Shown: positions 30,316 through 60,642 of the stretch, in pieces
How the letters are laid out: each line of letters begins with the position of its first letter
How positions within the stretch are numbered: the first letter of the stretch is position 1
NCBI GenBank assembly: GCA_963749075.1
Contig: CAVVLJ010000020.1
Span: forward strand, 352,001-416,000
Length of the DNA stretch: 64,000 nt
Direction: 5' to 3'
Source of the DNA: an uncultured Pseudomonadota bacterium
Lineage (GTDB): Bacteria > Pseudomonadota > Alphaproteobacteria > JACZXZ01
Notes under the pieces: generated by a model
Told to the model about the DNA's origin: nothing
Database searches by the model: none
What the model saw: the letters and a program-made list of their open reading frames with translations, nothing else
Position numbers and translations under genes: made by a program

Positions 30316-30348
30316 GCGGGCATGGCACGTCCGAGGGAGGCAGCCGAG

Positions 30349-43396: not shown

Positions 43397-44156
43397 CGCC
43401 GAGGGGCCGGCGCGGGCGCGCGTCGTGCTGGTCGACGACGACGATCTCTTCCGCGAATCCCTCGGCCAGAACCTCGGCGACGCCGGCTTCGAGGTGCGCG
43501 ATTTCCCCTCCGCCGAGGCGGCGCTCGCGCATCTCCTCGACGGCGAGAGCGACGACATCGTGCTGCTCGACTGGAAGATGCCGGGGATGAACGGCATCGA
43601 GCTCTTGCGCCGCATGCGCCAGGCGGGCCTCGAGGCGCCGGTCATCTTCCTCACCGTGCTCAACGACCAGATCTACGAGGAGGCGGCGCTGCAGGGCGGT
43701 GCGGTGGATTTCGTCGAGAAATCGCGCAGCTTCGCGATCCTGCTGCGGCGCATGAACCTGATCCTTGCCGGGCGCAAGGGCGGCGACGCCGCCCAGGCGG
43801 GCGAGGCTGGGCCGCGCCCGGCGGTCTTCCGGCGCGGCGCCCTCGAGCTCAGGCGCGAGACGAGCCGCGTCTTCTGGAACGGCTCGGAAGTGCCGCTCTC
43901 CGTCACCGAGTTCAAGATGGTCGATCTCCTCGCCACGCGCGCCGGCCGCGACGTGCGCTACCGCGATCTCTACGACCTGGTGCACGGCTCCGGCTTCGTC
44001 GCCGGCTACGGCAGCGAGGGCTATCGCTCGAACGTGCGCGCCTTCGTCAAGCGCATCCGCCAGAAGTTCCGCGACGCGGATGCCGCCTTCGACGAGATCG
44101 AGAACTATTCGGGCTTCGGCTACCGCTGGCGCGAGGGAGAGAGCGGGAATTCATAG
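43389..44156 (+). CDS. OmpR-family response regulator (ChvI-like)
   Basis: VLVDDDDL, LLDWKMPGMNG, VIFLT, GAVDFVEK, LSVTEF, VKRIRQKFR, YSGFGYRW. Confidence 0.9.
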   Translation: MTDAEGPARARVVLVDDDDLFRESLGQNLGDAGFEVRDFPSAEAALAHLLDGESDDIVLLDWKMPGMNGIELLRRMRQAGLEAPVIFLTVLNDQIYEEAALQGGAVDFVEKSRSFAILLRRMNLILAGRKGGDAAQAGEAGPRPAVFRRGALELRRETSRVFWNGSEVPLSVTEFKMVDLLATRAGRDVRYRDLYDLVHGSGFVAGYGSEGYRSNVRAFVKRIRQKFRDADAAFDEIENYSGFGYRWREGESGNS

Positions 44157-44160
44157 GGCA

Positions 44161-45699
44161 ATGGGCGGCCTCGACCGGATCATGCGCTCGTTCGCTGCGA
44201 AGATCCTCGTTCTCGCCGCGATTTTCATCGCCGTGCCCGTCATCCTCTACCAGGAGTTCAAGGCGGCCGACGCGGAGAAGAACCGCCTCTTGTTCGAGAG
44301 CGTCGAGGCGCAGGGGCGGCTCGCGGCCGAGGCGTTGCGCCCCCTCGTCGCCAGCACCGACGCGCAGGCCATGCGCACGATCGCCGAGACGGTGGCGCGG
44401 CTCGGCGATTCCGGCTCCAACATCAAGCTGCTCTATCGCCCCGCGGGCGGCCCCTCGAGCCAGTCGTTCTTCTACGTGGCCTCCTCGCCGGCCGTCTCGG
44501 CTCAGTACCTCGACGAGGAGCGCCAGGATCTGCTGAACGCCGGCGTGCTCGACCGCCTCAAGGATTCCTGCGAGGAGGTGCGCTCGCTCGGCGTGCGCTA
44601 CACCAATCCGGCGGGCGGGCACGAGCTCCTCACCTCGATCACGCCCATCCGGGCCGCGAGCGGCTGCTGGGTGGTCATCACCTCCAACCGCACGGCGGAA
44701 TTCCTCGGCTCCTCGCTCGGCCAGCCCTATTGGCAGACCGATGCCGTGCGGCTCGCCGCGGCGATCTATCTGGCCATGGCGGCCCTCGTCGCGGTGCTCT
44801 TCGTCGAGGCGAGCCTGAGCCTGCGCCGCTTCGGACGGCTGGCGCGCGACTTGCGCACGGGACGCGAGCAGCGCGGCTCCTTCGCCTCGCTCAACCGCAT
44901 TCCCGAGCTCGCGGGCGTGGCCGAGGAGTTCGACCGCCTGGTCGCCACGCTGCGCTCCTCGTCCCAGGCCCTGCGCTTCGCCGCCCAGGAGATGGCGCAC
45001 GCGTTCAAGACGCCGCTCGGCATCATCGCCCAGAGCCTCGAGCCGCTCAGCCGCGGCCTCGCCGGCGAGGACGCGCGCGCTCGCCGCGCCGTCGAGCTCA
45101 TCGGCAAGTCGCTCGAGCGCCTCGACAGCCTGGTCGCCACCTCGCGCCGCCTGGACGAGGCGATCGCCGATTCGATCAACCCGCCGCGCGAGCGCGTGCC
45201 GCTCTCCGATCTCGTGGGCGAGATCGCCGGCGAGTATCGCGAGGCCCACGAGGAAGGCGGGGCGCGCTTTACCGTGGACATCGAGCGCGGCATCGCGGTG
45301 ACCGGCGCGCCGGATCTCCTCGAGATCGTCATGCAGAACCTGCTCGACAACGCGCTCAGCTTCAGCCCGCCGCAAGGCGAGATCATGGTGAGCCTGCGCG
45401 CGCGGGGCGGCGTGGCCGAACTTGCGGTCGCCGACCGCGGCCCGGGGGTGCCGGCCGACAAGATCGAGCGCATCTTCGAGCGCTTCGTCTCGCTGCGCGC
45501 GAGCGAGCCTTTGGCAAGCGGGACCGGAGAGCACGCCGCGGGCGGGCGGCGCGGCGGCGCCCACCTCGGCCTCGGGCTCTGGGTCGTGCGCCGCAACGTC
45601 GAGGCGATGGGCGGCGTCGTCGCCGCCGAGAACCGCGCGCAAGGCGGCTTCCGGGTCATCGTGGCCCTGCCGCTCGCGCGCTCGCGGCGGGCTCCTTGA
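44161..45699 (+). CDS. membrane sensor histidine kinase (ChvG-like C-terminus)
   Basis: Two TM helices, EMAHAFKTPL H-box, NLLDNALSF, DRGPGV, IFERF, HLGLGLWVV. Confidence 0.9.
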   Translation: MGGLDRIMRSFAAKILVLAAIFIAVPVILYQEFKAADAEKNRLLFESVEAQGRLAAEALRPLVASTDAQAMRTIAETVARLGDSGSNIKLLYRPAGGPSSQSFFYVASSPAVSAQYLDEERQDLLNAGVLDRLKDSCEEVRSLGVRYTNPAGGHELLTSITPIRAASGCWVVITSNRTAEFLGSSLGQPYWQTDAVRLAAAIYLAMAALVAVLFVEASLSLRRFGRLARDLRTGREQRGSFASLNRIPELAGVAEEFDRLVATLRSSSQALRFAAQEMAHAFKTPLGIIAQSLEPLSRGLAGEDARARRAVELIGKSLERLDSLVATSRRLDEAIADSINPPRERVPLSDLVGEIAGEYREAHEEGGARFTVDIERGIAVTGAPDLLEIVMQNLLDNALSFSPPQGEIMVSLRARGGVAELAVADRGPGVPADKIERIFERFVSLRASEPLASGTGEHAAGGRRGGAHLGLGLWVVRRNVEAMGGVVAAENRAQGGFRVIVALPLARSRRAP

Positions 45700-45935: not shown

Positions 45936-46523
45936 TCACTTGCACTTGTCGGCGGCGGTGCCGACCCAGGCCCGGCGCGTCCCCTCGCGGAAGCAGCCGG
46001 CGGCCCAGCTGCCCGTATAGCTCTCGCCGCCGGCCTGCCGGTAGGTGCCGCGGCCCTCCGCGCGGCCATCCTTCCAGCCCCCTTCGTAGCGGCTGCCGTC
46101 CGCCCACAGATAGACGCCCTGGCCGCTCCTCAGCCCCTGGCGCCACTCGCCGTCGTAGCGGTCGCCGCTGGCCCAGGCGAAGAAGCCGTGGCCGCTCTCG
46201 GCGTCGTTGCTGAGCTCGCCCCAGTAGCGGTCGCCGTTGGCCCAGCCGTAGGCGCCATGCCCGTCGTAATGGCCGGCCTTGAGGTCTCCTTCGTAGCGGC
46301 CCTCGCGGCGGCCGTCCTCGTACCACTCGAGGACGCCGTGGCCTGCCGCCACGCCGCGGACGCAAGGCCCGCTCCAGCTCAAGGTGAGGGTGGCGCGCGG
46401 ATGCTGGCGCCACACCCGGCAGCCCTTGGCGTCGGCGACCCATCCGCCGCGCTCTGCCGCATGCGGCCCGGCAAGGCTCAGCGCGATCACGGCAGCGGCG
46501 ATGCCCAGTGCGTAGCAGCGCAT
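45936..46523 (-). CDS. secreted MORN-repeat protein
   Basis: Signal peptide. About five RY(E/D)G.W..G...G.G.Y.WA.G repeats of 23 aa. Confidence 0.85.
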   Translation of the reverse strand: MRCYALGIAAAVIALSLAGPHAAERGGWVADAKGCRVWRQHPRATLTLSWSGPCVRGVAAGHGVLEWYEDGRREGRYEGDLKAGHYDGHGAYGWANGDRYWGELSNDAESGHGFFAWASGDRYDGEWRQGLRSGQGVYLWADGSRYEGGWKDGRAEGRGTYRQAGGESYTGSWAAGCFREGTRRAWVGTAADKCK

Positions 46524-46738
46524 GCGGCGCTCCCGAAACGGCGGCCCAGGGAGCGTGGGCGCGGCTCGCTGCCGCCACAGAAGCTGCGCCGGCGCCCCTC
46601 GCGGGGCGCTGGCTTAAAATACAAGGCGCCATCGCCGGCCGCACGGCGAAATTCCACTTGCGCCCGCTGTGGAGGAGCGCTCCTCAACCCATGGCGAGAC
46701 GCTTGGCGAGCGCGGTCATGCCGCCCTTGGCCAGCCGG

Positions 46739-46777
46739 CGATTGGCGCCCACGATTGGCGCCCACGATTGGCGCCCC
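46739..46777. repeat. tandem repeat, 3 x 13 bp, in a divergent promoter region
   Basis: CGATTGGCGCCCA x2 plus CGATTGGCGCCCC. Confidence 0.85.
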
Positions 46778-46886
46778 AAACTATACTCCGCGGCCAAAGT
46801 CGTATATAAAGTTGCGTCCACCGTGCCAAGCCGGGTCCGGCGGAGGCGTTGGCGTGGGCGGCGAGACGCAAGCGGCGGTGAGGGGG

Positions 46887-48366
46887 ATGCTGGAACGGGC
46901 GGCAATGCGCAAGCCGCGTCGTGGCTTGGCGGGGGGGCGGACGCGTGTCCGGTGCGCGGCCGTGCTCCGGCGGGGTGCCTCGGGCGGCCGCCGCATGCTC
47001 GTTGCCGGCGCGTTGGCGCTCGCAGCACTGGGCCTCGGCACCGGCGCGGCGGCGGCGGCGCAGACGGGTTCGGCTCCTCAGAACGTCGCCCCAGACGCCG
47101 CCTCAGACGAAGGAAGGTCTGCAGGCGCAGTACAACGACCTCTTCCAGAAGCTGCTCAAGGACCCCACCAACGTCGATCTCACCTTCCAGTTCGCCGACG
47201 TCGCCACCAAGATCGGCAACTACGAGTCGGCGATCTCGGCGCTCGAGCGCCTGCTGCTCTATGATCCCGATTTCCCGGAGGTGAAGCTCGAGCTGGCCGA
47301 GCTCTATCTCCACATCGGCTCCTACGACGTGGCGCGGGTCTATCTCAAGCAGGCCCAGCAGGAACCGAACATGCCGCTGAAGGTCGTCGCGCGCGAGAAG
47401 GCGATCGAGGACGAGCTCAACCGCCAGTCGGCAACTTCGAGGATCACCGCCAGCGTGCTCGCGGGAGCGCGCTATCAGACCAACGCCAATGCGGGTCCGG
47501 CCGGCGCCAACATCATCGTCGGCGGCGTGCCGTCGACGCTGAGCTCGATCTTCGCGCGCAAGTCCGATTGGGACGTGTTCTTCGACGGCAACATGGAGCA
47601 CAGCTACGATCTCAGCCCGGCGAGGAACGCGAAACTCGAGACCAACGTCCTCGTCTATTACTCGAAGCAGATCCGGCTGGGGCAATTCGATTCGGCGTCC
47701 ATCGAGGTGAACTCGGGGCCGCGCTTCGATATGGGCGACGGCGAGGAAGTCTATTTCCGCACGCGGCCCTATATCCTCGCCAACGAGGTGCTGCTCGGCA
47801 ACGAGCACCTCTTCTGGACGGTCGGCGGCGGCATCGAGGTGAGCCGCCCGATCACCAAGGAGCTCAAGCTCAGCGGCAACTACGAGTTCCGCTCGGAGCA
47901 TTTCTCCTACAACGACTCGGTCGGGGGCGCCCCCGGCCTGAGCGGGGGCGTGCACGCCTTCACCCTCGGCTGGAGCTACAACGTCCTCGAGAACGGCAGC
48001 CTCTCCTTCGATACGGACTACGCGATCGACAATGCGCGGGTGGACTTCAACGCCTCGCATTCGCTCGAGTTCCGCCTCAGCTACTCGCAGAGCGTGTCGC
48101 TGCCGTGGCATTTCCCGCGCGGGCCGCTCGTGCTGACGCCCGAGGTCGACCGCATCTATGCCCACTACGACCAGCCCGACCCCGGACTGGACCCGACGCG
48201 CTCGCAGGTCACCCAGGAATGGCGCTACGGCCTCAGCACCCAGCTCGGCCTGACCGAGAGCCTGGCCGCCAGCGTGCGCGTGGTCCGCGAGTTGGTGGAT
48301 GCCAACATCCCGATCAGCAAATACAACAACTCGCAGGTGATCTTCGGCCTGCTTTGGTCCTACTGA
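46887..48366 (+). CDS. TPR + outer-membrane beta-barrel protein (Slam/DUF560-like) with apparent +1 frameshift at about 47082
   Basis: Signal peptide (LVAGALALAALGLGTGAAAAAQ) in one frame. TPR (AISALERLLLYDPDFPEVKLELAELY), amphipathic beta-strands and C-terminal aromatic beta-signal (FGLLWSY) in the +1 frame. Confidence 0.75.
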
Positions 48367-48446
48367 GCGGCGGGCGAGGCCGCCCGCGTCGCGTCTCCGC
48401 CCCGCTCGGCCGCGGCGGGTTTGACGCGCTCCACCCGGATCGAGCG

Positions 48447-49964
48447 ATGGACACGGGCCCCGTCATCCATATCGAGCCGAAGGGCCTTCTTGCCAACCGC
48501 ATGATTCAATATCTGGCGGCGAAAAGACTGCAGGCGCACTGTCGCGGCAGCCGCCTATCCAACGTCAGTCTCCCCGAATGGGACCTCGTGATGCCGCCGC
48601 TCAGTAGCGGCGGAGAGGAAAGGGAGCTGGTGCTGCGCCACGAGGCGCGGGTGCCATTCCGCACCCTGGTCGAGCTGGTGAATGCCGGCGCATTCCAGCG
48701 CGTCGTGATCGCCGAAAACGCGCAACGGATGGACTATCTCGGCGAGCCCGCGGCTTGCGCGCGCGTCTTCCCGCCGAAGGCCACCCCCGCTCCGGTGGCG
48801 GACGACGAGCTCCTCATCCACATCCGCTCCGGCGACGCGGCCGGAGGCATCCAGCACTACCCGCTCGTCCCGGCGGAATTCTATCGCACGTTGAGCGAGC
48901 TGAGCGGGCTCAGGCCCTGCTTCATGGGGCAGCTCGAGAACAACGCGCACTGCGACCGGCTGCGCGAGGGCTTTCCGCACGCGCGGTTCATCGAGACGCA
49001 GGACGTCCTCAGCGACTTCGAGACGATCCGCTCGGCGCGGCACATTGCGATCGCCGTGAGCACCTTCTCCTGGCTCGCCGCCTGGCTGTCGTCGGCGGAG
49101 CGCATTTTCCTCCCCATACTCGGCTTCTTCAATCCGATGCATTTCCCGGGCTGGGGCGACATCGACCTTCTACCGACCGCGGATGCGCGCTACCGCTTCT
49201 TCCTCTTCCCGCTGCATTACGGCCTTTCGCTCGAGGAGGCTCTGCCCTCGCATGCGGAAATCGCCGCCCGTTGCAGGGAGATCTCGCCGCGCCAGGTCGA
49301 TGTCCTGCGCCAGCGCGCGCCCTACGTCCGCGTCGCTCCGTCCGACATCGACTTCAATCCGGTGTGGTACGCGCATGCCTATATCGACGCGGCGATGGAG
49401 ATCAGCGAGGGCTGGTTCGCCGGCCCGCTCGAGCACTATCTCGAGATCGGCTGCCGCCGGGGCTGCCGGCCGATGCCGCCCGGCTTTTCGCAGCGCCGCG
49501 ACCCGGTCGGCCGCGCAGCCGACGTGGCCGCCGGCAGGCCCGCGCAGCAGAGCTCGCTCAGCCCCTGGTCGGTCGGGCGCACCACGGAGGAGGACGCCGG
49601 ACGCGCCTTGCTCGGAGCGCCGCAGGAGCCCTATGCATTTCACACCAACTGGGAGAATTCTCCCTGGTGGCGCGTGGATCTCGAACGGCCCCAGGCAATC
49701 GCGGAGGTCCTCATTGACAATCGTGCGGACGATGTCCTCAATGCTGCGCGCGCCGGTCCGCTGCGCGTCGAGACGTCGATCGATATGGAGACGTGGGCCG
49801 AGCTCTTCACGACACCTCCCGGCTTGATGGGCGGCAGCGGCGGGAGAGCGGTGATTTGGACGGCACCCGCGCCGCGTGTCGCGCGTTTCGTCCGCATCGT
49901 CGTTCCGCGCTGGACCTGCCTCCATCTGCGGCAGGTGCAGATTTTCGCCAGCGCGGCAGGGTGA
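48447..49964 (+). CDS. GT11 (alpha-1,2-fucosyltransferase)-like protein fused to a discoidin/F-type lectin domain
   Basis: GLLANRMIQY, LIHIRSGD, DFETIRSARHIAIAVSTFSWLAAWLS. C-terminal VAAGRPAQQSS, FHT...PWWRVDL...NRAD, LHLRQVQIF. Confidence 0.65.
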   Translation: MDTGPVIHIEPKGLLANRMIQYLAAKRLQAHCRGSRLSNVSLPEWDLVMPPLSSGGEERELVLRHEARVPFRTLVELVNAGAFQRVVIAENAQRMDYLGEPAACARVFPPKATPAPVADDELLIHIRSGDAAGGIQHYPLVPAEFYRTLSELSGLRPCFMGQLENNAHCDRLREGFPHARFIETQDVLSDFETIRSARHIAIAVSTFSWLAAWLSSAERIFLPILGFFNPMHFPGWGDIDLLPTADARYRFFLFPLHYGLSLEEALPSHAEIAARCREISPRQVDVLRQRAPYVRVAPSDIDFNPVWYAHAYIDAAMEISEGWFAGPLEHYLEIGCRRGCRPMPPGFSQRRDPVGRAADVAAGRPAQQSSLSPWSVGRTTEEDAGRALLGAPQEPYAFHTNWENSPWWRVDLERPQAIAEVLIDNRADDVLNAARAGPLRVETSIDMETWAELFTTPPGLMGGSGGRAVIWTAPAPRVARFVRIVVPRWTCLHLRQVQIFASAAG

Positions 49965-50111
49965 GCCGCGCGGGCGGCCGCCGGTCATGCGGCACCGGAG
50001 GCGCCGGCGCGTCCTTCGCTCGCGCCGGATCGGCCGACGCTGTAAAATCCTTTGCTTCGAGCGGCGGAGTCCGATCGCCGGCTCCGGGTGGCAAGTCAAC
50101 GAGAGCGAGCG

Positions 50112-50282
50112 ATGGAGCCGCAGGATACCGGTGATTCCGACAGCGAAGACGCCGTCGAGCCCGAATGGGAGCGGCAGAAGCGGCGCCTGCGCCGCCGCGA
50201 GCTCATCATCACCATCGTCGGTGCGATCTTTTTTCTTATGTCGCTGTTGATCCCATTCGTCACCGGCATGCATCGTCCGTGA
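50112..50282 (+). CDS. small single-TM membrane protein (56 aa)
   Basis: Acidic N-terminus, basic RQKRRLRRR, TM LIITIVGAIFFLMSLLIPFV. A second diverged copy at 51.2 kb keeps the same frame pattern. Confidence 0.55.
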   Translation: MEPQDTGDSDSEDAVEPEWERQKRRLRRRELIITIVGAIFFLMSLLIPFVTGMHRP

Positions 50283-50342
50283 CCCGCGCGGGCGGACGGG
50301 CGCCCGCCGCCCAGCCGCGCGGCGATCTCTGACGAGCCGGCG

Positions 50343-51140
50343 TCACGTGCCGCGCGCTAACGCCGACGAGACCGGGTCGAGCCCGAATAGCACGTGGTCG
50401 ACGGAGTTGGGAAACAGGGTCTCCAAGAGAAAGCTTGGCAAGAGCTTCTGCACGAAGCATCGCGACGTATTCGTGGAATGCAGAATATGCAGGCATATGA
50501 AACTCATATCCGCCACGCCGTACATCCCGAACCGCTCCATGGCGCCCTCGGCGAACACGGCGTCCTCGCGCCAATCCAGATCCGGACACCGCACCTCGTT
50601 CCAGACCGACTTCCTGTACATGAACGAGAACCCGTAGCCGAAAACGGATCCACGCAGGTGCACATTGTTGCTGTCGTCGAAATTGACGAGCTGCACGGGC
50701 TCGTTGCCGAGGACATAATGGGGCCCGACGTGCTGGCACAAGTCGCAATGCGCAAAGATGCCATGGACCTTGCTGAAGATGAAGAAGCTGTCCAGCTTCA
50801 CGAAGCTCGCCTTCTCCTCGAACATGGCGCGGAGCATGTCCAACAGGTAGTGCTTTGCGTAAAAGTCGTCGTCGTCGAAATTTGCGATGATCTCTCCACG
50901 CGCCTGCTCGATGAGGATGTTGCGCTTCATGCCGATGGTGAGGGGTTGCGAGGAATGCCTGTAGATGACGCGCGGGTCGGCAAGTGCCGTCATGAAATCA
51001 CTGGGCGACGGACTGTCGTCCAGGACCAGCCACTCGAAATCGCTCATATGCTGAGCTTTGACGCATTCGTATATGAGCGGCAGGAAATGCTGCCGATTGC
51101 GAGTCGGCGTATTGATGCTGACTAAGGGATTTCCCGCCAT
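50343..51140 (-). CDS. glycosyltransferase family 2
   Basis: PLVSINTPTRNR, EWLVLDDS, IGMKRN, ARGEIIANFDDDDFY, EDAVF. Confidence 0.9.
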   Translation of the reverse strand: MAGNPLVSINTPTRNRQHFLPLIYECVKAQHMSDFEWLVLDDSPSPSDFMTALADPRVIYRHSSQPLTIGMKRNILIEQARGEIIANFDDDDFYAKHYLLDMLRAMFEEKASFVKLDSFFIFSKVHGIFAHCDLCQHVGPHYVLGNEPVQLVNFDDSNNVHLRGSVFGYGFSFMYRKSVWNEVRCPDLDWREDAVFAEGAMERFGMYGVADMSFICLHILHSTNTSRCFVQKLLPSFLLETLFPNSVDHVLFGLDPVSSALARGT

Positions 51141-51208
51141 GCGCGCGACTCAGGGCTCGCTTTAATCGACATTCTCCAGACGACCAAGAAAGGTAACATT
51201 CCGCTGGG

Positions 51209-51325
51209 ATGCCCGGAAGCGAAAAGGCGCCGCCGCGAGCTCATCATCACTATCGTCGGCGCGATCCTGCCGCTCATGTCGCTGGCAATCCCCGTCATCG
51301 GCGGCGCGCACCGCTGGCGACCGGC
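51209..51325 (+). pseudogene. degenerate duplicate of the 50112 membrane-peptide gene
   Basis: RRRELIITIVGAILPLMSLAIPVIGGAHR. ATG at 51209 is one base out of frame, and the position of the paralogue's TGA reads CGA. Confidence 0.5.
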
Positions 51326-51348
51326 AGAGGCAGACGGGGAGCGTCCGC

Positions 51349-52533
51349 TCACGCGCCGAGCGCCCGCTGCGCGTGCTGCAGGTTGCCCAAGACGCGCTCC
51401 CGCTCGCCGGCCGGCAGCTGGGTGCCGTCGAGCAGCATTTGGCAGACGCGCTCCGATTCGCGGTGTTCGCCTATCCAGTAGGTCGCGACCGCATATTCGT
51501 CCCAGTTGAGCCAGTCGTAGCATTCGCCCTCGATGAACAGATAGTCGCTGGCCGGCCGCGGGATTTCGGTGGCGCGCTTGGAGAAGAGATGCGCCAGCGC
51601 GTACCGGTTGCGTTCCCGGTAGAAGCGCGCCAGGCGGACGAGCGGCTCGGCCCGCTGCATGCGGTATTGGTAGGTCTGCAGATAGCACTCGACCACCGTC
51701 GCCTCGGGAAGCCCCAGGCTCTCGCTCAGGCGGGCGATCTGGTAGAGCGAATACCACACCTCTTCGACCCAGCCACCGAGCTCGGCGCGGCGCCGGTAAG
51801 TCTCGAGGGCGTCTTCCGGCCGCCCCATGTCCCTGTAGGTTTGCGCAAGATAGAAGATGTTGCGCGGCTTGAGCAGCCGCGCTTCGCCGAGAGGCTCCTT
51901 GAGATCGGCGCGCTCCGGCTCGTAGGCGGCCTGCCGCTCGAGCTCCTCGAGCGCCTCGAGGTCGCGCGTGAGGAGGGCGATGTCGCGGCTGTATTTCTCC
52001 GGCCTGCTGCTGCCGTCGGCATAGTCCAGGAACTCGATGGCATCGGTCAGCGGGGGGTCGCGGTGGATGTCGGGCGACACGCTGGCGCAATATTCGTGGG
52101 TCGAGCCCCAGTAGCGCCAGCGCCGGCCCCCGGTCAGGCGCGCGTTGACCAGGCGGACGTTGCCGTAGAAAAATCCCCATTGGTTGCGCTGGATGACGAG
52201 ATAGACGTCGGCCGCGAGCTTCTCCTTCCAGGCGGGGTCGCGCACCGTCAAGGTCATGTCCGCGTCGCAAAACAAGAGATAGTCCGCCTTGCCCTCCGCG
52301 AGACGGATCGCCTCGGTGCGATTATGGGCGAAATCGCGCCAGGGCCGCGCGTGGAGCTCGCCCGGAATCCCCCTCAAGTGGTCGAGAACGAGCTGTTGGG
52401 TGCCGTCGCCCGACCCCGTATCGACGATCACCCAGTAGTCGATGAACGGCCGCAGCGAGTCGAGGCAGCGCCCGATGACCCGGGACTCGTTCTTGACGAT
52501 CATGTTCAGGCAGACGCTGCGCTGCTGCGGCAA
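51349..52533 (-). CDS. glycosyltransferase family 2 with C-terminal TPR repeats
   Basis: TTG after GAAGGAG. VCLNMIVKNE, IVDTGSGDGT, FAHNRT, FCDAD, HEY, RNIFYLAQTY, RAEPL TPR helices. Confidence 0.9.
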   Translation of the reverse strand: MPQQRSVCLNMIVKNESRVIGRCLDSLRPFIDYWVIVDTGSGDGTQQLVLDHLRGIPGELHARPWRDFAHNRTEAIRLAEGKADYLLFCDADMTLTVRDPAWKEKLAADVYLVIQRNQWGFFYGNVRLVNARLTGGRRWRYWGSTHEYCASVSPDIHRDPPLTDAIEFLDYADGSSRPEKYSRDIALLTRDLEALEELERQAAYEPERADLKEPLGEARLLKPRNIFYLAQTYRDMGRPEDALETYRRRAELGGWVEEVWYSLYQIARLSESLGLPEATVVECYLQTYQYRMQRAEPLVRLARFYRERNRYALAHLFSKRATEIPRPASDYLFIEGECYDWLNWDEYAVATYWIGEHRESERVCQMLLDGTQLPAGERERVLGNLQHAQRALGA

Positions 52534-52867
52534 TGGGGCTCTCCTTCGGCGGCCGCCGGGGCGAGGGTGCGGCACTCGGCTCGCCCGGACTGGCCCCGGT
52601 CCGGGCTCCCGGGAGCGCGGCGGAAGTCTAGCAGAAGCGGGCATGGCGGCGGCAATGGCGCGCGCGCGGCATGGCAGACCGCCCAACGCCCTGCCGCGCG
52701 CACTTCCGCCAGGATTCCTTCTTGCGCAGCCGCCGCAACTCCCTTAAATTCGCTTAAAATTGATAACATCGACGGCAAGCCCGCATTGCTTGCCAGCCAC
52801 AGCGAGATGGCCCGCGCCAGAGAGATTGCGCGACGGTTCAAGTGGTTAGGGCGTTCGCTAGGGGGCC

Positions 52868-52883
52868 TGGCACAACGGTTGCA
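52868..52883 (+). promoter_or_regulatory. sigma-54 (-24/-12) promoter
   Basis: TGGCAC-AACGG-TTGCA, an exact consensus match, about 175 bp upstream of the FecR-domain gene. Confidence 0.75.
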
Positions 52884-53058
52884 TCTTAAGGCGGGCGATG
52901 AATTGCCGCACTGAATGGGCACCCGGAGCGCAGGCAACTCGGAGGACGGCGTCGCCGCTTCCGGGGAAGCCCGTGGGCTGACGCCCGATCTGTCGGGCGG
53001 CGGCCAGGACGAAGCGTGAAGCGCGCGGGGATCAGCCGCGCCGGCGGGGGAGCAGGGG

Positions 53059-56000
53059 ATGCGCGGGGTCACGTCTCGAAACGCGCTTCGCGAGAGGCTG
53101 TTAGCCGAAGCCGCCCGCTCGGTCTTCGTGGCGCTGCTCGGCCTGGGCGGCGGCGCCGGGTCCGTTGCGGCGGCCCAAGAGACGGTCGGCGTCACCTCCG
53201 CGGTCAATCCGGAGGCGGTGGGTCAGCCGCCGAATGAGCCGGAGAGCACGCTCATCGTCGGCCACGACATCATGCGCAATGAGCGCATCGCCACGAAGGG
53301 CCTGGGTCAGACGCAGATCCTCTTCGTGGACCAGTCGTCGCTGACGGTTGCCCCCAACTCGGAAGTGGTGATCGACGAGTTCGTCTACGACCCGCGCAAG
53401 CAGGCGGGCAACATGGTCGCGAATTTGACCACCGGCCTGCTCCGCTACGTGGGCGGCAAGGTGAGCAAGCAGAAGGACGTCACCTTCATGACGCCTTCGG
53501 CCGCGATCACCGTGCGCGGCGGCATCCTCTTCGTCAAGGTCGGCGCCAACGACCAGGTCACGGCGACCTTCGGCTTCGGCGAGCATATGTGCGTGCTCGC
53601 GGACGGACACAAGGTCTGCACCAACGTGCCCGGCACCTCGGTCGCCGTGCCGGGATCGGGCCAGCCTCCGTCAGCGCCCTTCGCGACCTCGCCTGCCGCC
53701 CTCCAGAGCATGATCGGCGAACTGGAAGGCGACGATCCGAACGCCCTCGCGGCCGTCATCGGCTCGATAGCACCACGAGCCGGGGGCGACCAGGGAAACC
53801 CGGGCCTAGGCGATGCCGGCCCGCCTTCGGGCGGCGGCAATGGGCTGGGCTCTTATTCGAACAGCGGGCCACAGACCTTCATTCCCAACCCGACGCCGAC
53901 GCCCACTCCGACGCCGGCGCCAACTCCTGCTCCGACACCTACGCCGACACCCACGCCGGCGCCGACACCCGCACCCACGCCCACCCCGACGCCCACGCCT
54001 ACTCCTACTCCTACGCCGACGCCGACGCCGACGCCGACACCCACGCCAACGCCAACGCCAACGCCGACCCCGACGCCCACGCCAACGCCAACGCCAACGC
54101 CGTCAAAGCACCACCATCACCACCACCATCACCATTACCAGTTCGAGTACCACCATCATTATTGGTACGACCACCATTGGTACGGCCATAGCGGCTCGTC
54201 GGGCCACAGCGGCTCCTCGGGCTACACCGGTTCCTCTGGACACAGCGGCAGCTCCGGCTTCTCCGGCTCGTCCGGGCACAGCGGGAGCTCCGGCGACAAG
54301 GGCTCGTCCGGGCATAGCGGGAGCTCCGGTGACAAGGGCTCGTCCGGCCATAGCGGCAGCTCCGGCTTCAGCGGCTCGTCCGGGCACAGCGGGAGTTCCG
54401 GCGACAAGGGCTCGTCCGGCCATAGCGGCAGCTCCGGCTTCAGCGGCTCGTCCGGGCACAGCGGGAGTTCCGGCGACAAGGGCTCGTCCGGCCACAGCGG
54501 CAGCTCCGGCTTCAGCGGCTCGTCCGGGCACAGCGGCTACTCCGGCTCCTCGGGCCATAGCGGCAGCTCCGGCTTCTCCGGCTCGTCCGGGCACAGCGGG
54601 AGCTCCGGCGACAAGGGCTCGTCCGGCCATAGCGGCAGCTCCGGCTTCTCCGGCTCGTCCGGGCACAGCGGGAGCTCCGGCGACAAGGGCTCGTCCGGCC
54701 ACAGCGGCAGCTCCGGCTTCAGCGGCTCGTCCGGCCACAGCGGGAGCTCCGGCGACAAGGGCTCGTCTGGCCACAGCGGCAGCTCCGGCTTCAGCGGCTC
54801 GTCCGGCGGCCACAGCGGCAGCTCCGGCTCGAGCGGCTCGTCCGGCGGCCACAGCGGCAGCTCTGGCTCGAGCGGCTCGTCCGGCGGCCACAGCGGCAGC
54901 TCCGGCTCGAGCGGCTCGTCCGGCGGCCACAGCGGCAGCTCCGGCTCGAGCGGCTCGTCTGGCGGCCACAGCGGCAGCTCCGGCTCGAGCGGCTCGTCCG
55001 GCGGCCACAGCGGCAGCTCCGGCTCGAGCGGCTCGTCCGGCGGCCACAGCGGCAGCTCTGGCTCGAGCGGCTCGTCCGGCGGCCACAGCGGCAGCTCCGG
55101 CTCGAGCGGCTCGTCCGGCGGCCACAGCGGCAGCTCCGGCTCGAGCGGCTCGTCTGGCGGCCATAGCGGCAGCTCCGGCTCTAGCGGCTCCTCGGGCTCC
55201 AGCGGCTCGTCCGGCTCCAGCGGCAGCTCCGGCTCGAGCGGCTCGTCTGGCGGCCATAGCGGCAGCTCCGGCTCTAGCGGCTCCTCGGGCTCCAGCGGCT
55301 CGTCCGGCTCCAGCGGCAGCTCCGGCTCGAGCGGCTCGTCTGGCGGCCATAGCGGCAGCTCCGGCTCTAGCGGCTCCTCGGGCTCTAGCGGCTCGTCCGG
55401 CTCCAGCGGCAGCTCCGGCTCGAGCGGCTCGTCTGGCGGCCATAGCGGCAGCTCCGGCTCGAGCGGCTCGTCTGGCGGCCATAGCGGCAGCTCCGGCTCG
55501 AGCGGTGCCTCGGGCTCGAGCGGCTCGTCTGGCGGCCACAGCGGCAGCTCTGGCTCGAGCGGCTCGTCCGGCTCCAGCGGCAGCTCTGGCTCGAGCGGCG
55601 CCTCGGGCTCGAGCGGCTCGTCCGGCTCGAGCGGCAGCTCCGGCTCGAGCGGTGCCTCGGGCTCGAGCGGCTCGTCCGGCGGCCATAGCGGCAGCTCCGG
55701 CTCGAGCGGTGCCTCGGGCTCGAGCGGCTCGTCCGGCGGCCATAGCGGCAGCTCCGGCTCGAGCGGCTCCTCGGGTCACAGCGGCAGCTCGGGCAACGCC
55801 AACAACTTGGGCGCGAGCGGAGACTCCGGCTCGTCGGGCCATAGCGGCAGCTCCGGCTTCAGCGGCTCGTCGGGCCATAGCGGCAGCTCCGGCTTCAGCG
55901 GCTCGTCGGGCCATAGCGGCAGCTCCGGCTCCAGCGGCTCGTCCGGTCATAGCGGCTCGTCGGGCCATAGCGGCTCGTCCGGGCACAGCGGGAGCTCCGG

Positions 56001-56418
56001 CTCCAAGGGCTCGTCGGGCCACAGCGGCTCCTCCGGGGACCACGGCTCGAGCGGCTCGTCAAGCCACAAGGACGGTAAGCACGACTACGACCGTTACACT
56101 TTCCACCGCGGGCACGAGCGCGATCTGCACGACGGCAGCGAGCACTCCAGCGGCTGGTCCGATCATAAGGACGCCAAGCACGACTACGACAAATACACGT
56201 TCCACCGCGGCAAGGACCACGAACGGCACGACAGCGGCGATCACGCCAGCAGCTGGTACCGCGATAAATTCCAGAACTATCTCGACCGCTTCGGGAAGGA
56301 GATGGACCGCTGGAAGAGAGCTGCCGAGGACCACCGCAGATGGCGGACGTGGCGCGAGCACTTCGGCATCTCGAAGGGCAAGCACCACGAGCACGATAAG
56401 GACAAGGAAGGCCACTGA
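53059..56418 (+). CDS. secreted FecR-domain protein with Pro-Thr linker, poly-His, Gly/Ser/His repeats and charged His-rich tail
   Basis: Signal peptide. [51 protein letters not shown] are FecR motifs. The ORF stays open for 1119 aa. Confidence 0.85.
53890..54102 (+). repeat. coding (Pro-Thr/Ala)n repeat
   Basis: CCN-ACN hexamer repeats with synonymous variation, about 70 aa. Confidence 0.92.
54184..56063 (+). repeat. coding Gly-Ser-His tandem repeats (9/18/36/39/72-bp periodicities)
   Basis: SSGHSG alternating with [12 protein letters not shown], then the 13-aa unit [13 protein letters not shown], then SSG/ASG runs. Confidence 0.95.
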
Positions 56419-56546
56419 GGCCGCCCCGCCTTCCTGACCTGCTTGCCGAGTGCCGAGTGTTGCCGCGCCGGCAAGCGGGCTCGGTTCATTGAGCTCGCAG
56501 CGATTGCGTGGCTCGCAAGGGGCCGCACTTCGCCCTGCGCCGGCGG

Positions 56547-58781
56547 CTATTTCGTGAGCGCGACGAACACCCCGTCCCAATCGGCGGGCGGCGGCTCCGC
56601 GCGGAAGCGCGCGATGCGGCCCTCGTAGAGCGTGTAGAGCGCCTGGAGCGTCTCGGGTGCCTGCGAGCTGCAGGCCTCGAGGTACCGGCACGCCTCGGCC
56701 CAGCGCCGCTCCCGATAGGCGGCCAGCATGGCGTCGTGGTCGGCCTTGAGCGCCGCGAAGGCGGAGTTCGCCGCGATCCCGGCGTCGCCGACGAGGGCGA
56801 AGATGTGCACCGGCACGGCCTTGCCCTTGACCCGCACCAGGTCGAGCTCGATGAAGGCGAGCCCCTCAGCCTCCTCGGCCGTCTTCTCGCCCACCACGAT
56901 ATCGACGCCGTAGCTCGCCGACTGCCCCTCGAGCCGCGAGGCCAGGTTCACGTCGTCGCCGAGCACCGAATAGTCGAAGCGCTGGGCCGAGCCCAGGTTG
57001 CCGACGCAGCAGGTGCCCGTATTGAGGCCGATGCCGATGCGCACCTGGTGGAAGGGGCGGTCCTCGGCCGCGGCTTCCTCGCGCCAGCTCTCATTGAGGC
57101 GCACGAGCTCGCTGCGCATGGCGAGCGCTGCGCGGCAGGCATGCTCGGAATGGCTCGCATCGTCGAGCGGCGCGTTCCAGAACGCCATGATGGCGTCGCC
57201 CATGTATTTGTCGACGGTGCCGCCAGCGGCAAGGATGGCGTCCGTCATGGGCGTCAAGAAGCGGTTGATGAAGCTGGTGAGGCCGTGGGCGTCGAGGCGT
57301 TCGGCGATCCCGGTGAAGCCGCGGATGTCGCTGAACATGAGCGTCATCTCGCGCATCTCCCCGCCGAGCACGAGCCGCTCGGGATGGCGCGAGAGCTGTT
57401 CGACGATGGCCGGCGCCAGATAGCGCCCGAAGGCGTGGCGCACGCGGCGGCGCTCGTTCTCCGTGCGGAAGAACAGCACGGCCGAGGAGGAGAGGTAGAC
57501 GAGGAGCACCACGATCGAGGGGAACGCCGGGTCGAACAAGAGATTGTGCGCGGCATAGGCGTACCATGACGCGCCGAACGCCGAAGCCATGGCGCCAAGG
57601 CCGAGGAAGGCCGTCCAGCGGGCACCCACCTTGGGCAGCAGCAAGAGGAGGGCGATCCCGATCACCAGCATGTAGACGAGCTCGGCCCCGAGCGCCCAAT
57701 TGGGCCGCTCGAGCGAGTCGCCGAGCAGCATCTGCTCGGTGAGCTGGGCATGGATCTCGACGCCCGGCGCGTCGGGGTCGAGCGGCGTCGGGCGGAATTC
57801 CTTGAGGCCCTGGGCGGTGGTGCCGACATAGACGATGTTGCCCTTGATCATGTCCGGGTCCACGCTGCCGTCGAGCACCTTCCAGGCGGGTACGTAGCGC
57901 TCGGGGACGGGTGGCGTGAAGTGGAGCCAGACGGTGCCGCGCGAATCGGTCGGCACCACGAGCCGGCCGACCTTGATCGAGTTCACGCCCACGTGCTCGC
58001 CGAAGCTCCTGACGCCGTTGGCACCCGTCGACTTGATGATGTAGGTGTGCGCCCCCTGCGCCACGCGCAGGGTCTCGAGCGCCACCGCCGGATAGAGCCA
58101 ATAATCGTCGAGGCCGCTCACGAGGGGCACCCGGCGGGTGATCCCGTCGATCCCGAGGATGTCGTTGAAGGTGCCGTTGCCCGCGGCGGCCGCCTCGATG
58201 CTGCCGATATTGACGACGGCGCCGCGGAACTGCGGGACCCAGGGCCGCGGATCGTCGCCGGCGATGGCGAAGCTGGCCTTTTCCCGCGGCAGGAGCGCGC
58301 CGTGCCGGTGGGTGAGCACGAAGCCGGTCACCACGCGGCTGCGCCGGATCGCGTCGCCGAGCACGTCGTCGTGGTCGGGGAGCGCCTCGATGCGCTGGAC
58401 CAGGGGGTCGTTGGGATCGAGTCCCTTGAGGTCCCCGAGGGTGTACGCCGGCGAGGTGCGGTCCGGCTCGGCAAAGACGATGTCGAAAGCGGTCACCGCG
58501 GCGCCGAGCGCGGTCAGCCGGTCGACCAGCTTGGCCATGAGCGTGCGCGGCCACGGCCATTGACCGAGGCGCGTCAGGCTGTCGTCGTCGATGTCGACGA
58601 TGCGCACCGGCACCGGCTCGTAGTCGCGCGGCTTGAGGCGCATGTAATCGTCGAAGACGAAGAGCCGCAGCTGCTCGAGCGGCACCGGCTCGGCGGCCCA
58701 GCCGGCGAGCGCTGCAAGAAGGATGACGAGGGGCACCAGAAGGTGCAGCTTGCTCTTGAGAAGGCGCTTCGCCTGTTGCAT
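56547..58781 (-). CDS. CHASE2-domain class III adenylate/guanylate cyclase
   Basis: IVDIDDDSL..LGQWPWPR, FDIVFAEPDR, PGVEIHAQ, three TM helices, MFSDIRGFT, DKYMGD, GDDVNLASRLEG, VKGK. Confidence 0.95.
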   Translation of the reverse strand: MQQAKRLLKSKLHLLVPLVILLAALAGWAAEPVPLEQLRLFVFDDYMRLKPRDYEPVPVRIVDIDDDSLTRLGQWPWPRTLMAKLVDRLTALGAAVTAFDIVFAEPDRTSPAYTLGDLKGLDPNDPLVQRIEALPDHDDVLGDAIRRSRVVTGFVLTHRHGALLPREKASFAIAGDDPRPWVPQFRGAVVNIGSIEAAAAGNGTFNDILGIDGITRRVPLVSGLDDYWLYPAVALETLRVAQGAHTYIIKSTGANGVRSFGEHVGVNSIKVGRLVVPTDSRGTVWLHFTPPVPERYVPAWKVLDGSVDPDMIKGNIVYVGTTAQGLKEFRPTPLDPDAPGVEIHAQLTEQMLLGDSLERPNWALGAELVYMLVIGIALLLLLPKVGARWTAFLGLGAMASAFGASWYAYAAHNLLFDPAFPSIVVLLVYLSSSAVLFFRTENERRRVRHAFGRYLAPAIVEQLSRHPERLVLGGEMREMTLMFSDIRGFTGIAERLDAHGLTSFINRFLTPMTDAILAAGGTVDKYMGDAIMAFWNAPLDDASHSEHACRAALAMRSELVRLNESWREEAAAEDRPFHQVRIGIGLNTGTCCVGNLGSAQRFDYSVLGDDVNLASRLEGQSASYGVDIVVGEKTAEEAEGLAFIELDLVRVKGKAVPVHIFALVGDAGIAANSAFAALKADHDAMLAAYRERRWAEACRYLEACSSQAPETLQALYTLYEGRIARFRAEPPPADWDGVFVALTK

Positions 58782-58790
58782 GGCGCCATG

Positions 58791-59600
58791 CTACCCGCTG
58801 GCGCGCCGCTCCGCCACATGGCCGGCGAGGGCGGCAATCAGCTGCTCGAGGACGGGGCGCAGCCGCTCGGCGCGCTCGGCGCGGTAGCGGAAGGGCGGGC
58901 TCTCGTCCATGTAGGTGATCTGGCTGAGCTCGAGCTGGACGGCCTGCACGGCGTCCGCGGGGCGGCCGTACCGCCGCGTGATGTAGCCGCCGGTGAAGCG
59001 GCCGTCGAGCACGCTCGTGAAGCCCTCGGCGCTCTGGCAGAGCTCGAAGAGCCTGCGGGCGAGGCCGGCCTCCATGCTGGCGCCCTTGGCGGTGCCCAGG
59101 TTGAGGTCGGGGAGGCGGCCAGGGAAGAAGCGCGGCACGCGCGAGCGGATCGAGTGGGCGTCGAATAGGATGGCGAAGCCGAACTTGCCGCGGATGCGCT
59201 CCAGCTCGTGTGTGACGCGGTCGTGATAGGGCTTCCAATAGACGTTGATGCGGCGGTGCACCTCCTCGGCGTCGGGCTCCTCGCTTGGGCGGTAGAGCGG
59301 CAGACGCTCGAAGGTGTCGAGCGGGACGACGCCGGTGTTCTCGGCACCCGGATAGAGGGCCTCGCCGCTCGGGTCGCGGTTGAGATCGACCACATAGCGC
59401 GAGAAGTTCGCCATCAGGAAATGGGCGCCGAGCGCGCCCGCGAATTCATAGAGCCGGTCGACGTGCCAGTCGGTATCGGCCAGCACGAGCGCGGCGGGCG
59501 TCATGCGCGCCGCCAAGTGATCTGGAACGCTCGTGCCACAATGGGGGATCGAGATGAGGAGCGGTGTGCTTCCCGGGAGGAGACGGTAGATTTCGCTCAC
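58791..59600 (-). CDS. hutG: N-formylglutamate deformylase/amidohydrolase
   Basis: LLISIPHCGT, DTDWHVDRLY, SRYVVDLNR, YWKPYH, FDAHSIRS, GRFTGGYITR, QLELSQ. Confidence 0.9.
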   Translation of the reverse strand: MSEIYRLLPGSTPLLISIPHCGTSVPDHLAARMTPAALVLADTDWHVDRLYEFAGALGAHFLMANFSRYVVDLNRDPSGEALYPGAENTGVVPLDTFERLPLYRPSEEPDAEEVHRRINVYWKPYHDRVTHELERIRGKFGFAILFDAHSIRSRVPRFFPGRLPDLNLGTAKGASMEAGLARRLFELCQSAEGFTSVLDGRFTGGYITRRYGRPADAVQAVQLELSQITYMDESPPFRYRAERAERLRPVLEQLIAALAGHVAERRASG

Positions 59601-59625
59601 GGCTTCTCCCCGCGTGAGAGGGCTT

Positions 59626-60642
59626 CTAGGCCGAACCCCGCGCGCCTTCCGTGAGGAGGCGGCAGTAGAGCGCCGCATCCACGTTGCCGCCCGAGCAGAC
59701 GACCGCGACCGCGCGCCCGGCAATAGGCAGCTTGCCGGCGAGCACGGCCGCGAGCGCCACGGCACCCCCCGGCTCGACCACCAGCTTGAAATGCTCGAAG
59801 GCTGCCGCCATGGCCGCTGCCACCTCGGCTTCGCTCACGGCAAAGCCGCTCGCGACGCGGCCCTGCATGGCGGCGAAGGTGAGCTCGCCCGGCTGCTCCG
59901 CCATGAGCGCATCGCAGATCGAGCGTCCGCCGCTGGCGTTGCTCACGCGCCTGCCTGCCGCGAGCGAGCGGGCGGTGTCGTCGAAGCCTTCCGGCTCGAC
60001 GCTGTGCACGCGCGTCGCCGGCGAGAGCTCGCTGAGGGCGATCGCGATGCCCGAGGCGAGCCCGCCGCCGCTCGCGGGCACCGCCACCGCGGCAAGCTCG
60101 ACGCCGAGCGCCGCCGCATCCTCGGCGATCTCCAGGCCCGCGGTGCCCTGGCCCGCGATGATCTCGGGGTCGTCGTAGGGCCGCACGAGCGTGGCGCCGC
60201 GCTCGGCCAGGAGCCGCGCCGCGACCGCCTCCCGGTCCTCCTTGTAGCGGTCGTAGAACACCACCTCGGCACCGTAGCCGCGGGTATTGGCGACCTTGAT
60301 GGCGGGCGCATCGGCCGGCATGACGATCACGGCCGGCATGGCGAGAAGCTGGGCCGCGGCCGCAACGCCCTGCGCATGGTTGCCGGAGGAGAAGGCGACG
60401 ACGCCGCGCGCCCGCGCCTCGGCGGGGATCTGGCTCATGCGGTTATAGGCGCCGCGGAACTTGAACGAGCCCGTGCGCTGCAGCGTCTCGGCCTTGACGA
60501 AGAGCCGGCCGCCGAGCCGGGCATCGAGCACCGGCGATGCGAGGAGCGGGGTGCGCACCGCCTGCCCGGCAAGCCGCGCCGCGGCCGCGCGCACCGCCGC
60601 CAGCGTCGAAATCGCCTTTATCTCGGGCCTCGCGTCGTTCAT
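59626..60642 (-). CDS. threonine/serine dehydratase family PLP enzyme
   Basis: RTPLL, KAETLQRTGSFKFRGA, SSGNHAQG, GQGTAGLE, GGGL, VEPGGA, SGGNVD. No regulatory domain. Confidence 0.9.
   Translation of the reverse strand: MNDARPEIKAISTLAAVRAAAARLAGQAVRTPLLASPVLDARLGGRLFVKAETLQRTGSFKFRGAYNRMSQIPAEARARGVVAFSSGNHAQGVAAAAQLLAMPAVIVMPADAPAIKVANTRGYGAEVVFYDRYKEDREAVAARLLAERGATLVRPYDDPEIIAGQGTAGLEIAEDAAALGVELAAVAVPASGGGLASGIAIALSELSPATRVHSVEPEGFDDTARSLAAGRRVSNASGGRSICDALMAEQPGELTFAAMQGRVASGFAVSEAEVAAAMAAAFEHFKLVVEPGGAVALAAVLAGKLPIAGRAVAVVCSGGNVDAALYCRLLTEGARGSA

Follow-up and report, generated by a model that had tools for sequence, protein, structure and literature searches.

A collagen-like FecR protein and a nested glycosyltransferase cassette beside a CHASE2 cyclase gene in an uncultured soil alphaproteobacterium

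Three described systems come closest to the locus reported here. In Sinorhizobium meliloti, outer-membrane-to-cyclase signalling is laid out in the available parts of two reports (PMC7529298, PMC13001267), and PMC7529298 places the barrel of the NsrA protein at residues 600-1200. The FecR-domain protein SMc02177 is described together with CyaD1 in the same organism (PMC5498481, available part). In Clostridioides difficile, the gene sgtA lies just 5′ of bclA3, and its product transfers O-GlcNAc onto Thr residues of the collagen-like exosporium protein BclA3 and also modifies Ser-substituted peptides (PMC7157674, available part). The third system is Slam, or type 11 secretion (DUF560, PF04575), in which an outer-membrane barrel is encoded next to its partner protein. 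Here we describe a block of six genes, located at positions 46887-58781 of a 64,000-nucleotide stretch (the window) of the contig CAVVLJ010000020.1 from the metagenome-derived genome of an uncultured alphaproteobacterium (GCA_963749075.1), in which features of all three systems meet. The source of the locus is a soil bacterium. The block encodes an outer-membrane barrel protein, three glycosyltransferases, a FecR protein with a collagen-like stalk and a CHASE2 cyclase. With moderate confidence we regard it as a chimera, in which a barrel/FecR pair next to a CHASE2 cyclase gene has been combined with a glyco-collagen cassette, and we propose a mechanism in which the stalk carries glycans. No published description of this gene combination was found in the literature searched.

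In a window of about 70% G+C, genes were chosen among the open reading frames (ORFs) by third-position GC (GC3) phase together with Pfam matches. All six genes of the block were confirmed by their GC3 frames and Pfam. The first gene (46887/46905-48366, plus strand; Pfam, GC3, AlphaFold model) encodes a Slam-like protein of tetratricopeptide repeats (TPR) and a beta-barrel. It is followed by a gene for a 495-aa enzyme with a GT11-like N-domain and a F5/8-type-C domain of the F-type lectin kind (48477-49964, plus strand; Pfam, fold, profile). The next two genes lie on the minus strand and encode a GT2 glycosyltransferase of 265 aa (50343-51140; Pfam, GC3) and an enzyme consisting of GT2 and TPR domains, here GT2-TPR (51349-52686; Pfam, GC3). 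The FecR protein, predicted to be Sec-exported and 1119 aa long (53059-56418, plus strand; Pfam, translation), is followed by the gene of the CHASE2/class III nucleotide cyclase (56547-58781, minus strand; Pfam, hydropathy). A preliminary description of this DNA, made from the letters alone, had assigned the domains of all six products correctly, as judged by Pfam, GC3 and profiles, and had placed both GT2 genes on the wrong strand. The plus-strand ORFs 50394-51125 and 51373-52914 were considered as genes and rejected; both are Pfam-negative and have the wrong GC3 phase. The same description held that the glycosyltransferase genes are nested inside the FecR/barrel module. This is the case in the window and, as described below, again in the metagenome contig L141. 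According to the ORF and GC3 calls, the three glycosyltransferase genes are the only genes between the barrel and FecR genes, and no synthase, flippase, polymerase or sugar-nucleotide gene is called there.

The FecR protein is made up of several segments. It begins with a Sec signal peptide without a lipobox Cys (aa 1-39), which is followed by a FecR-type head (aa ~40-245; 53059-53793 together with the signal peptide, plus strand). The head matches the Pfam FecR family with an E of 3.1e-5 and 24.7 bits against a cut-off of 24, and it shares 60-69% identity with the heads in L015, L006 and L141. Next comes a Pro-Thr (PT) linker, which is followed by a run of nine His residues and a segment rich in His, Tyr and Trp (53890-54183, plus strand, from the translation). 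The following region, aa 376-998 (54184-56052, plus strand), is a Pro-free, collagen-like stalk recognized by Pfam, by composition and by the tandem repeats found with TRF. It matches Pfam Collagen (PF01391) with an E of 5.4e-57. Its 623 residues include 321 Ser (52%), 218 Gly (35%) and 44 His (7%), arranged in triplets of the types G-S-S, G-H-S, G-F-S and G-D-K. Runs of at least five triplets account for 162 G-X-Y triplets; the longest has 69, followed by one of 28, one of 16 and three of 10. In the middle part, GG breaks the pattern at intervals of about 13 residues or more. The protein ends in a tail rich in His, Asp, Lys and Trp, which contains a 33-aa direct repeat (56053-56418, plus strand, from the translation). 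Thus, the Ser-rich repeats noted in the preliminary description are real, whereas its picture of a generic Ser/Thr-rich mucin is replaced by collagen-like G-X-Y triplets. The Ser codons of the stalk are drawn from both families (129 AGC/AGT and 192 TCN), and the DNA copies of the repeat match each other only to 61-79% (TRF). The mixed codon families and the diverged copies imply selection on the protein in this frame and show that the stalk is real coding sequence. Runs of at least eight G-X-Y triplets occur only in the FecR gene in the whole 5.49-Mb genome.

Comparison with its relatives suggests how the FecR protein has arisen. The paralogue L006 (G000:C16:1263756-1265264; L006 7756-9264) has a head 69% identical to that of the window protein and about 100 aa of PT repeats, and it lacks the triplets; the tail of the window protein is similar to that of this paralogue (BLASTP 3e-5). 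Since L006 has the same head, a PT linker, a similar tail and no triplets, the triplet region appears to have been inserted into a true member of the FecR family. No homologues of the barrel, CHASE2 or glycosyltransferase genes were detected at the L006 locus by tblastn. The FecR tails in the window's genus are of low complexity and differ between species and between copies, with complete turnover in the family from one congener to the next. The closest orthologue of the head (L015; G003:C108 1-3180, minus strand) continues into more than 800 aa of Ser/Thr/Ala repeat, …ATATQSSSSYSTSTYSV…, which runs off the contig. In the protein P0004, a FecR head of 61% identity bears yet another type of tail, with linkers rich in Pro, pentapeptide repeats and a terminal stretch rich in His. 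A third, unrelated class, the short paralogues of congeners that consist of FecR only (L126, L128-L130), was considered and set aside. A TbpB-like domain is a mark of type-11-secretion cargo. The FecR proteins of the relatives mostly end in such a domain (L023 matches TbpB_B_D with an E of 4.5e-4), and a strict TbpB-like motif is present in 14 of the 65 FecR ORFs of the barrel loci described below. The tail of the window protein has no TbpB-like barrel domain. Its His residues are distributed over the His9 run, the His/Tyr/Trp cluster (54109-54183), every second triplet in places and the His/Asp/Lys tail, a composition that suggests metal binding by these segments.

The barrel gene encodes the partner of the FecR protein. 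Its AlphaFold model (pLDDT 80.7) contains six TPR-type helices followed by 14 strands, and the barrel of Slam proteins likewise has 14 strands. In Pfam the protein matches TPR families, with TPR_Slam at an E of 0.0065-0.0078 and SlipAM (PF04575) at 0.19. Nine aligned members of the barrel family give a similar picture, in which five match SlipAM (E<=1, best 3e-5) and eight TPR_Slam. The closest folds to the model in the PDB are the 14-strand barrels CymA and OmpG; the model also matches BcsC (9b8a, 6tzk) and PelBC. No Slam structure appears among these fold matches, and the family profile retrieves only TPR proteins from the PDB sequences. The barrel protein is therefore, to judge from these matches, a distant Slam relative at best.

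The barrel and FecR genes form a recurrent pair. A survey of species-representative genomes with a five-sequence alignment of the barrel family gave 80 loci, all of them in Alphaproteobacteria. A FecR-head ORF lies directly 3′ of the barrel gene on the same strand at 64 of the 80 loci, and a CHASE2 ORF is found no more than 8 kb from the barrel gene at 18 of them, often within 200-300 bp. The family is present in 15 of the 41 genomes searched, the window's own included. The genus of the window has two paralogous triads, each made up of barrel, FecR and convergent CHASE2 cyclase genes. The product of the cyclase gene shows clear matches to CHASE2 (PF05226; E 6.3e-58, 196.8 bits) and to Guanylate_cyc (PF00211; E 1.2e-19, 71.1 bits). 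Its topology consists of a first transmembrane helix, a periplasmic CHASE2 domain (~31-362), three transmembrane helices and the cyclase domain; the hydropathy profile, with hydrophobic segments at 7-35, 361-390 and 414-441, shows the corresponding transmembrane/periplasmic/transmembrane arrangement. The cyclase and FecR genes converge, with 128 bp between them. Orthologues of the cyclase with 78-79% identity are encoded in the congeners G001, G002 and G003, at contig ends, and in G001 and G002 the ORF convergent on the cyclase gene ends in GSS/GHS triplets. Structure prediction for a complex between the FecR head (aa 38-245) and the CHASE2 domain in the periplasm (aa 31-362) gave a score of 0.00, which carries no weight either way. 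On a plasmid of Ensifer sp. PDNC004 (L133), a gene for a CHASE2 cyclase 50% identical to that of the window is divergent from a small TPR gene, a FecR gene and the genes of an NHLP-type bacteriocin export system; a gene for a cyclic-nucleotide-binding protein lies alongside.

The presence of the cyclase gene at the locus could also be incidental. In that case, the barrel would export the stalk protein as a glycosylated surface fibre or adhesin and the cyclase would be a bystander. The convergent orientation of the cyclase gene fits this explanation, as do the 62 of the 80 barrel loci in which a CHASE2 gene is missing within 8 kb and the five out of five distant relatives in which the cyclase gene does not stand beside the pair. 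We nevertheless consider it unlikely that the cyclase is a mere neighbour. The convergent cyclase gene has been retained in both triads of the genus, and the CHASE2 genes near barrel genes in the 18 loci often lie at the short distances given above. Furthermore, adjacency of FecR and CHASE2 genes is recurrent: three of the five CHASE2 genes in this genome have an adjoining FecR gene, and the arrangement recurs in S. meliloti and Ensifer and, according to the available part of PMC5192318, also in Burkholderia.

The second part of the chimera is the glycosyltransferase cassette. Its central enzyme, GT2-TPR, matches the Pfam GT2 family (E 1.1e-8) and, weakly, TPR families. Searched against the PDB, its profile finds GmaR (1.2e-19), SunS (2.4e-11), the entry 7msk (3.2e-10) and designed TPR proteins (1e-11), and the closest solved relatives, GmaR, SunS and one further relative, act on proteins or peptides. 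The residues D141-A142-D143 are invariant in the alignment of the family, and this triad is read as the DxD motif. The enzyme thus shows the architecture of the SgtA/GmaR/SunS type, a GT-A (GT2) domain with a DxD motif followed by TPR. The gene is divergent from the collagen-like FecR gene, with 373 bp between them as called. The first ~55 aa lack conservation, and the true start is therefore probably downstream of 52686.

When the window enzyme, aligned with four modules from a congener, was used as the query, 586 relatives of GT2-TPR were returned, and the following statistics refer to the best 80 loci. These come from many phyla and encode enzymes with 38-47% identity. A run of at least eight G-X-Y triplets is encoded at 56 of the 80 loci, in 48 cases no more than 3 kb from the enzyme gene and at a median distance of 711 bp. 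When only the 42 loci with 5 kb or more on each side of the gene are counted, such a collagen-like run is present in 35. As a control, 42 unrelated loci (371 kb) were examined, in which the only runs of at least eight triplets belonged to two orthologues of the FecR gene described here. On contig C55 of the congener G003 (17789-32663; L036/L037), a 1759-aa (GAT)n collagen-like protein is encoded, followed by three large ORFs which contain four GT2-TPR modules fused to further domains.

Two other enzymes belong to the cassette. The plain GT2, whose minus-strand gene follows that of GT2-TPR, matches Pfam Glycos_transf_2 with an E of 7.3e-16 and shows weak NCBIfam matches of the WcaA, TuaG and EpsD type. 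The GT11-like/lectin enzyme has no signal peptide, and its GT11-like part covers approximately aa 1-345. Its C-domain matches Pfam F5_F8_type_C (E 3.1e-11) and, among PDB sequences, FBP32 (1.9e-18), 1K12 and lectinolysin. The model of the enzyme (pLDDT 91.6) places this domain at a TM score of 0.80 to lectinolysin 4gwi (Foldseek), and on profile and model together the C-domain is predicted to be an F-type lectin, that is, a fucolectin of the fucose-binding type. For the N-domain, the window enzyme gives no match to Pfam PF01531 (GT11). Signs of GT11 come from Atlas clusters of that name (score 0.93-0.94), from three listed homologues that carry PF01531 and from the homologue at L140, which reaches an E of 5.4e-4 and 19.7 bits against a cut-off of 23.9. 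In the PDB searches, made with the family profile and, by Foldseek, with the whole model, the lectin part was what matched or dominated and no fold class emerged for the N-domain. The designation GT11-like is therefore tentative. Seven loci with a homologue of this enzyme were found; a GT2-TPR gene is present in six and a collagen-like ORF in five of them, and none has a FecR, barrel or CHASE2 homologue (tblastn, E <= 1e-4). The cassette has a GC content of 0.61-0.65, lower than the ~0.70 around it, and therefore looks like an acquired island.

Such a cassette could instead serve the synthesis of a polysaccharide or of another glycoconjugate, exported by the TPR-barrel protein in the manner of BcsC or PgaA, and the FecR protein would then not be a substrate. 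The matches of the barrel model to BcsC and PelBC, the weak matches of the GT2 to the WcaA, TuaG and EpsD type and the island-like low GC of the cassette would agree with this. We regard it as quite improbable, since the ORF and GC3 calls show no synthase, flippase, polymerase or sugar-nucleotide gene between the barrel and FecR genes, and since 64 of the 80 barrel loci have a FecR gene as the partner and none has these enzymes. In addition, the GT2-TPR family tracks collagen-like genes (56/80), and its nearest solved relatives modify proteins or peptides.

The nesting of the cassette in the barrel/FecR pair is not confined to the window. The metagenome contig L141, from a different organism and with a GC content of 0.64, also has the cassette between the barrel and FecR genes, with the gene order rearranged. 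The contig encodes, in this order and with these identities, the barrel protein (60%), GT2-TPR on the opposite strand (67%), the GT11-like/lectin enzyme (70%), the GT2 (64%) and another GT2-TPR (40%). A FecR head (64%) comes last, and its PT linker and His/Asp run are followed by the end of the contig. The nesting has thus survived rearrangement in a second lineage, which speaks for function rather than accident. Because the GT2-TPR family tracks collagen-like genes and the nesting recurs in L141, the FecR protein, and within it the triplet stalk, is probably the acceptor of O-glycans from the cassette.

We propose the following mechanism for the chimeric locus. GT2-TPR would place the first sugar on Ser residues of the triplets in the cytoplasm, and the other two enzymes would extend it, with the lectin domain keeping its enzyme at sites where a sugar is already attached. 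The FecR protein would then cross the inner membrane by the Sec pathway, its head would dock on the TPR domain of the barrel protein, and the stalk would be delivered to the cell surface. Depending on its state, this complex may alter the activity of the adjacent CHASE2 cyclase. The placement of the FecR head, the export of the stalk through the barrel and any coupling of the FecR/barrel complex to the cyclase through cyclic AMP (cAMP) are suggested by NsrA-CyaK, by type 11 secretion and by synteny.

Several observations weigh against this proposal. Genes for the GT11-like enzyme and the plain GT2 are present in none of 40 relatives, and homologues of GT2-TPR among these 40 were found only in G003, at another locus. 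The two congeners G001 and G002 have the end of a GSS-type gene by the cyclase gene and no detectable glycosyltransferase homologue. Orthologues of this copy of the barrel gene and of the FecR head were also not found in G001 and G002, and the barrel/FecR-head segment of these genomes may be unassembled. No GT2-TPR or GT11-like gene occurs in any of the 80 barrel loci. The cyclase gene is convergent on the FecR gene and not co-transcribed with it, and in all five of the more distant genomes examined it stands apart from the barrel/FecR pair. With 11.6 bits, the barrel protein stays below the Pfam SlipAM cut-off of 22, and in comparison with type 11 cargo the FecR protein lacks the TbpB-like tail and has a FecR head. 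The Y position of the triplets at the other GT2-TPR loci is Thr in 66% of cases and Ser in 2.6%, and it is Ser here. Finally, the enzymes of the cassette have no signal peptides, so that a glycosylated chain would have to traverse Sec. For cytoplasmic enzymes that glycosylate Sec-type substrates, HMW1C and Aah/TibC are precedents.

These results also bear on what had been expected of the locus beforehand. It had been stated that the idea of a glycosylated repeat protein would fall if the glycosyltransferases did not co-occur with such a protein elsewhere; homologues of GT2-TPR do co-occur with collagen-like repeat genes, at 56 of the 80 loci. Comparative support for the FecR protein as the glycan acceptor comes from these loci and from the nesting in L141, and the use of Ser and not Thr in the triplets speaks against it. 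The gene-neighbourhood survey called for in the preliminary description came out in favour of the FecR/barrel (64/80), CHASE2 (18/80) and GT2-TPR/collagen (56/80) associations, and not of glycosyltransferases in barrel loci (0/80). Profile and structure comparisons agree with its domains, except that SlipAM (DUF560) remains below the Pfam cut-off and PF01531 gives no match.

The assembly of the window deserves consideration, as the barrel gene is interrupted by a frameshift. The signal peptide, starting at ATG 46887 or 46905 (plus strand), is shifted by one base relative to the reading frame of the mature part, which is encoded by the ORF 46921-48366 (plus strand) and ends in ...FGLLWSY. The base at 47082 is missing from contigs of two soil-metagenome runs of one study, and without it the two frames join. 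The extra base, which splits the signal peptide from the mature part, probably stems from an error in the assembly consensus; it may also be a real strain variant, and similar indels may be present elsewhere in the source genome assembly. The two runs may be the window's own source and are not independent of the assembly. Their contigs cover the positions 47025-49385 and 52669-53105. Contigs of both runs follow the window to 53523 and then turn into FecR-head sequence of the G003 type, which implies a related strain or species in the same sample. An artefactual FecR-collagen fusion or nesting in this metagenome-derived genome might be suspected from the at least one base error of the window (47082), from the lack of a run contig that bridges the PT linker or the whole repeat and from the breaks inside repeats in the short-read relatives, but it is very improbable given that the 3.36-kb FecR frame is open throughout, that the C-terminal tail matches that of the FecR paralogue, that run contigs span both regions named above, that GSS ends adjoin the cyclase orthologue in G001 and G002, and that L141 independently combines barrel, glycosyltransferases, FecR head, PT linker and His-rich run.

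The surroundings of the block contain genes of other kinds. A response-regulator and histidine-kinase pair (43176-45699, plus strand) lies just 5′ of a MORN-repeat gene (45936-46523, minus strand) and the barrel gene. The MORN-repeat gene is divergent from the barrel gene and has a 62% orthologue at the same position in the congener G003 (L015). Many MORN paralogues are encoded in this genome, with tandem clusters on the contigs C17 and C2. On the 3′ side, the block is followed by FGase and PLP-enzyme genes. A promoter and terminator scan of the region 46400-59900 returned two promoter-like and four terminator-like sites, which is not above shuffled sequence, and no operon structure could be derived from it.

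If the chimeric reading of the locus is right, its significance lies in two directions. To our knowledge, no ligand has been described for the widespread sensor domain CHASE2, and NsrA-CyaK in Sinorhizobium is the only route into it that has been studied. The locus, with its 80 relatives and its split FecR/barrel design, offers a testable model for how outer-membrane signals might reach CHASE2 enzymes. The pairing of glycosyltransferase and collagen-like genes across many phyla points to a general glycosylation system for collagen-like proteins, of which C. difficile spores are the only studied case in the literature searched. The fusion found here would be one natural substrate in which both ideas, envelope signalling and collagen glycosylation, are joined. 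A more speculative extension, to which we give little credence at present, is a trans-envelope antenna, in which the periplasmic FecR head would sit on the TPR domain and touch CHASE2 while the glycosylated, His-studded stalk would reach through the Slam-derived barrel and report as cAMP. If this were true, events at the stalk, be it binding, pulling or loading with metal, would be read out as cAMP, and a secretion channel would have become a conduit for signals whose sensor tip evolves rapidly and is tuned by glycans.

Considerable similarities connect the locus with each of the known systems, and so do clear differences. The NsrA-CyaK system has the same domain set, consisting of FecR, TPR and outer-membrane barrel beside a CHASE2 cyclase, in this case the adenylate cyclase CyaK. 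The 1197-aa gene on pSymB that overlaps cyaK and lies directly 5′ of it encodes FecR (66-160), TPR (417-531) and a C-terminal region; from its size and position we infer that it is NsrA. The parallel with Sinorhizobium drawn in the preliminary description thus holds, and the window pair is taken to be the split counterpart of this S. meliloti protein. In the window the domains are divided between two proteins and the cyclase gene is convergent and not co-transcribed, and the sequences show no significant similarity (BLASTP with the FecR part, E 0.027; with the barrel protein, E 0.14). NsrA has neither a collagen-like tail nor associated glycosyltransferases. Like the Slam/type 11 system, the locus combines an N-terminal TPR and a 14-strand barrel with a partner gene directly 3′. 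The family described here matches SlipAM and TPR_Slam weakly, and the partners in the relatives carry a TbpB-like C-terminal domain. The words FecR, CHASE2 and cyclase are absent from the main text of the two surveys of type 11 secretion systems that were searched.

The glycosyltransferase side of the locus resembles SgtA/BclA3 of C. difficile, in which an enzyme of the same architecture, GT-A/GT2 and then TPR, is encoded next to a collagen-like G-X-Y substrate. The likeness is one of architecture and gene position. The host here is a Gram-negative alphaproteobacterium, the acceptor would consist of G-S-S and G-H-S instead of G-x-T triplets and has a FecR head and a Sec signal, and two further enzymes stand beside GT2-TPR. 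By profile, the nearest solved relatives of the enzyme are GmaR of Listeria and SunS of Bacillus. Searches for literature on collagen-like Gly-X-Thr proteins with a glycosyltransferase, and on glyco-collagen clusters of Alphaproteobacteria, returned no description. The genome of Mesorhizobium sp. WSM4311 provides a counterpart at the DNA level (L140), where a collagen-like gene is divergent from a glycosyltransferase operon of five genes, which holds GT2-TPR genes and a GT11-like/F5-8-C enzyme at 43% identity. The collagen protein of this cluster has a DUF4347 head, unlike the FecR head of the window protein. Each building block of the locus is thus of a known kind, and it is their combination that is new to the literature searched.

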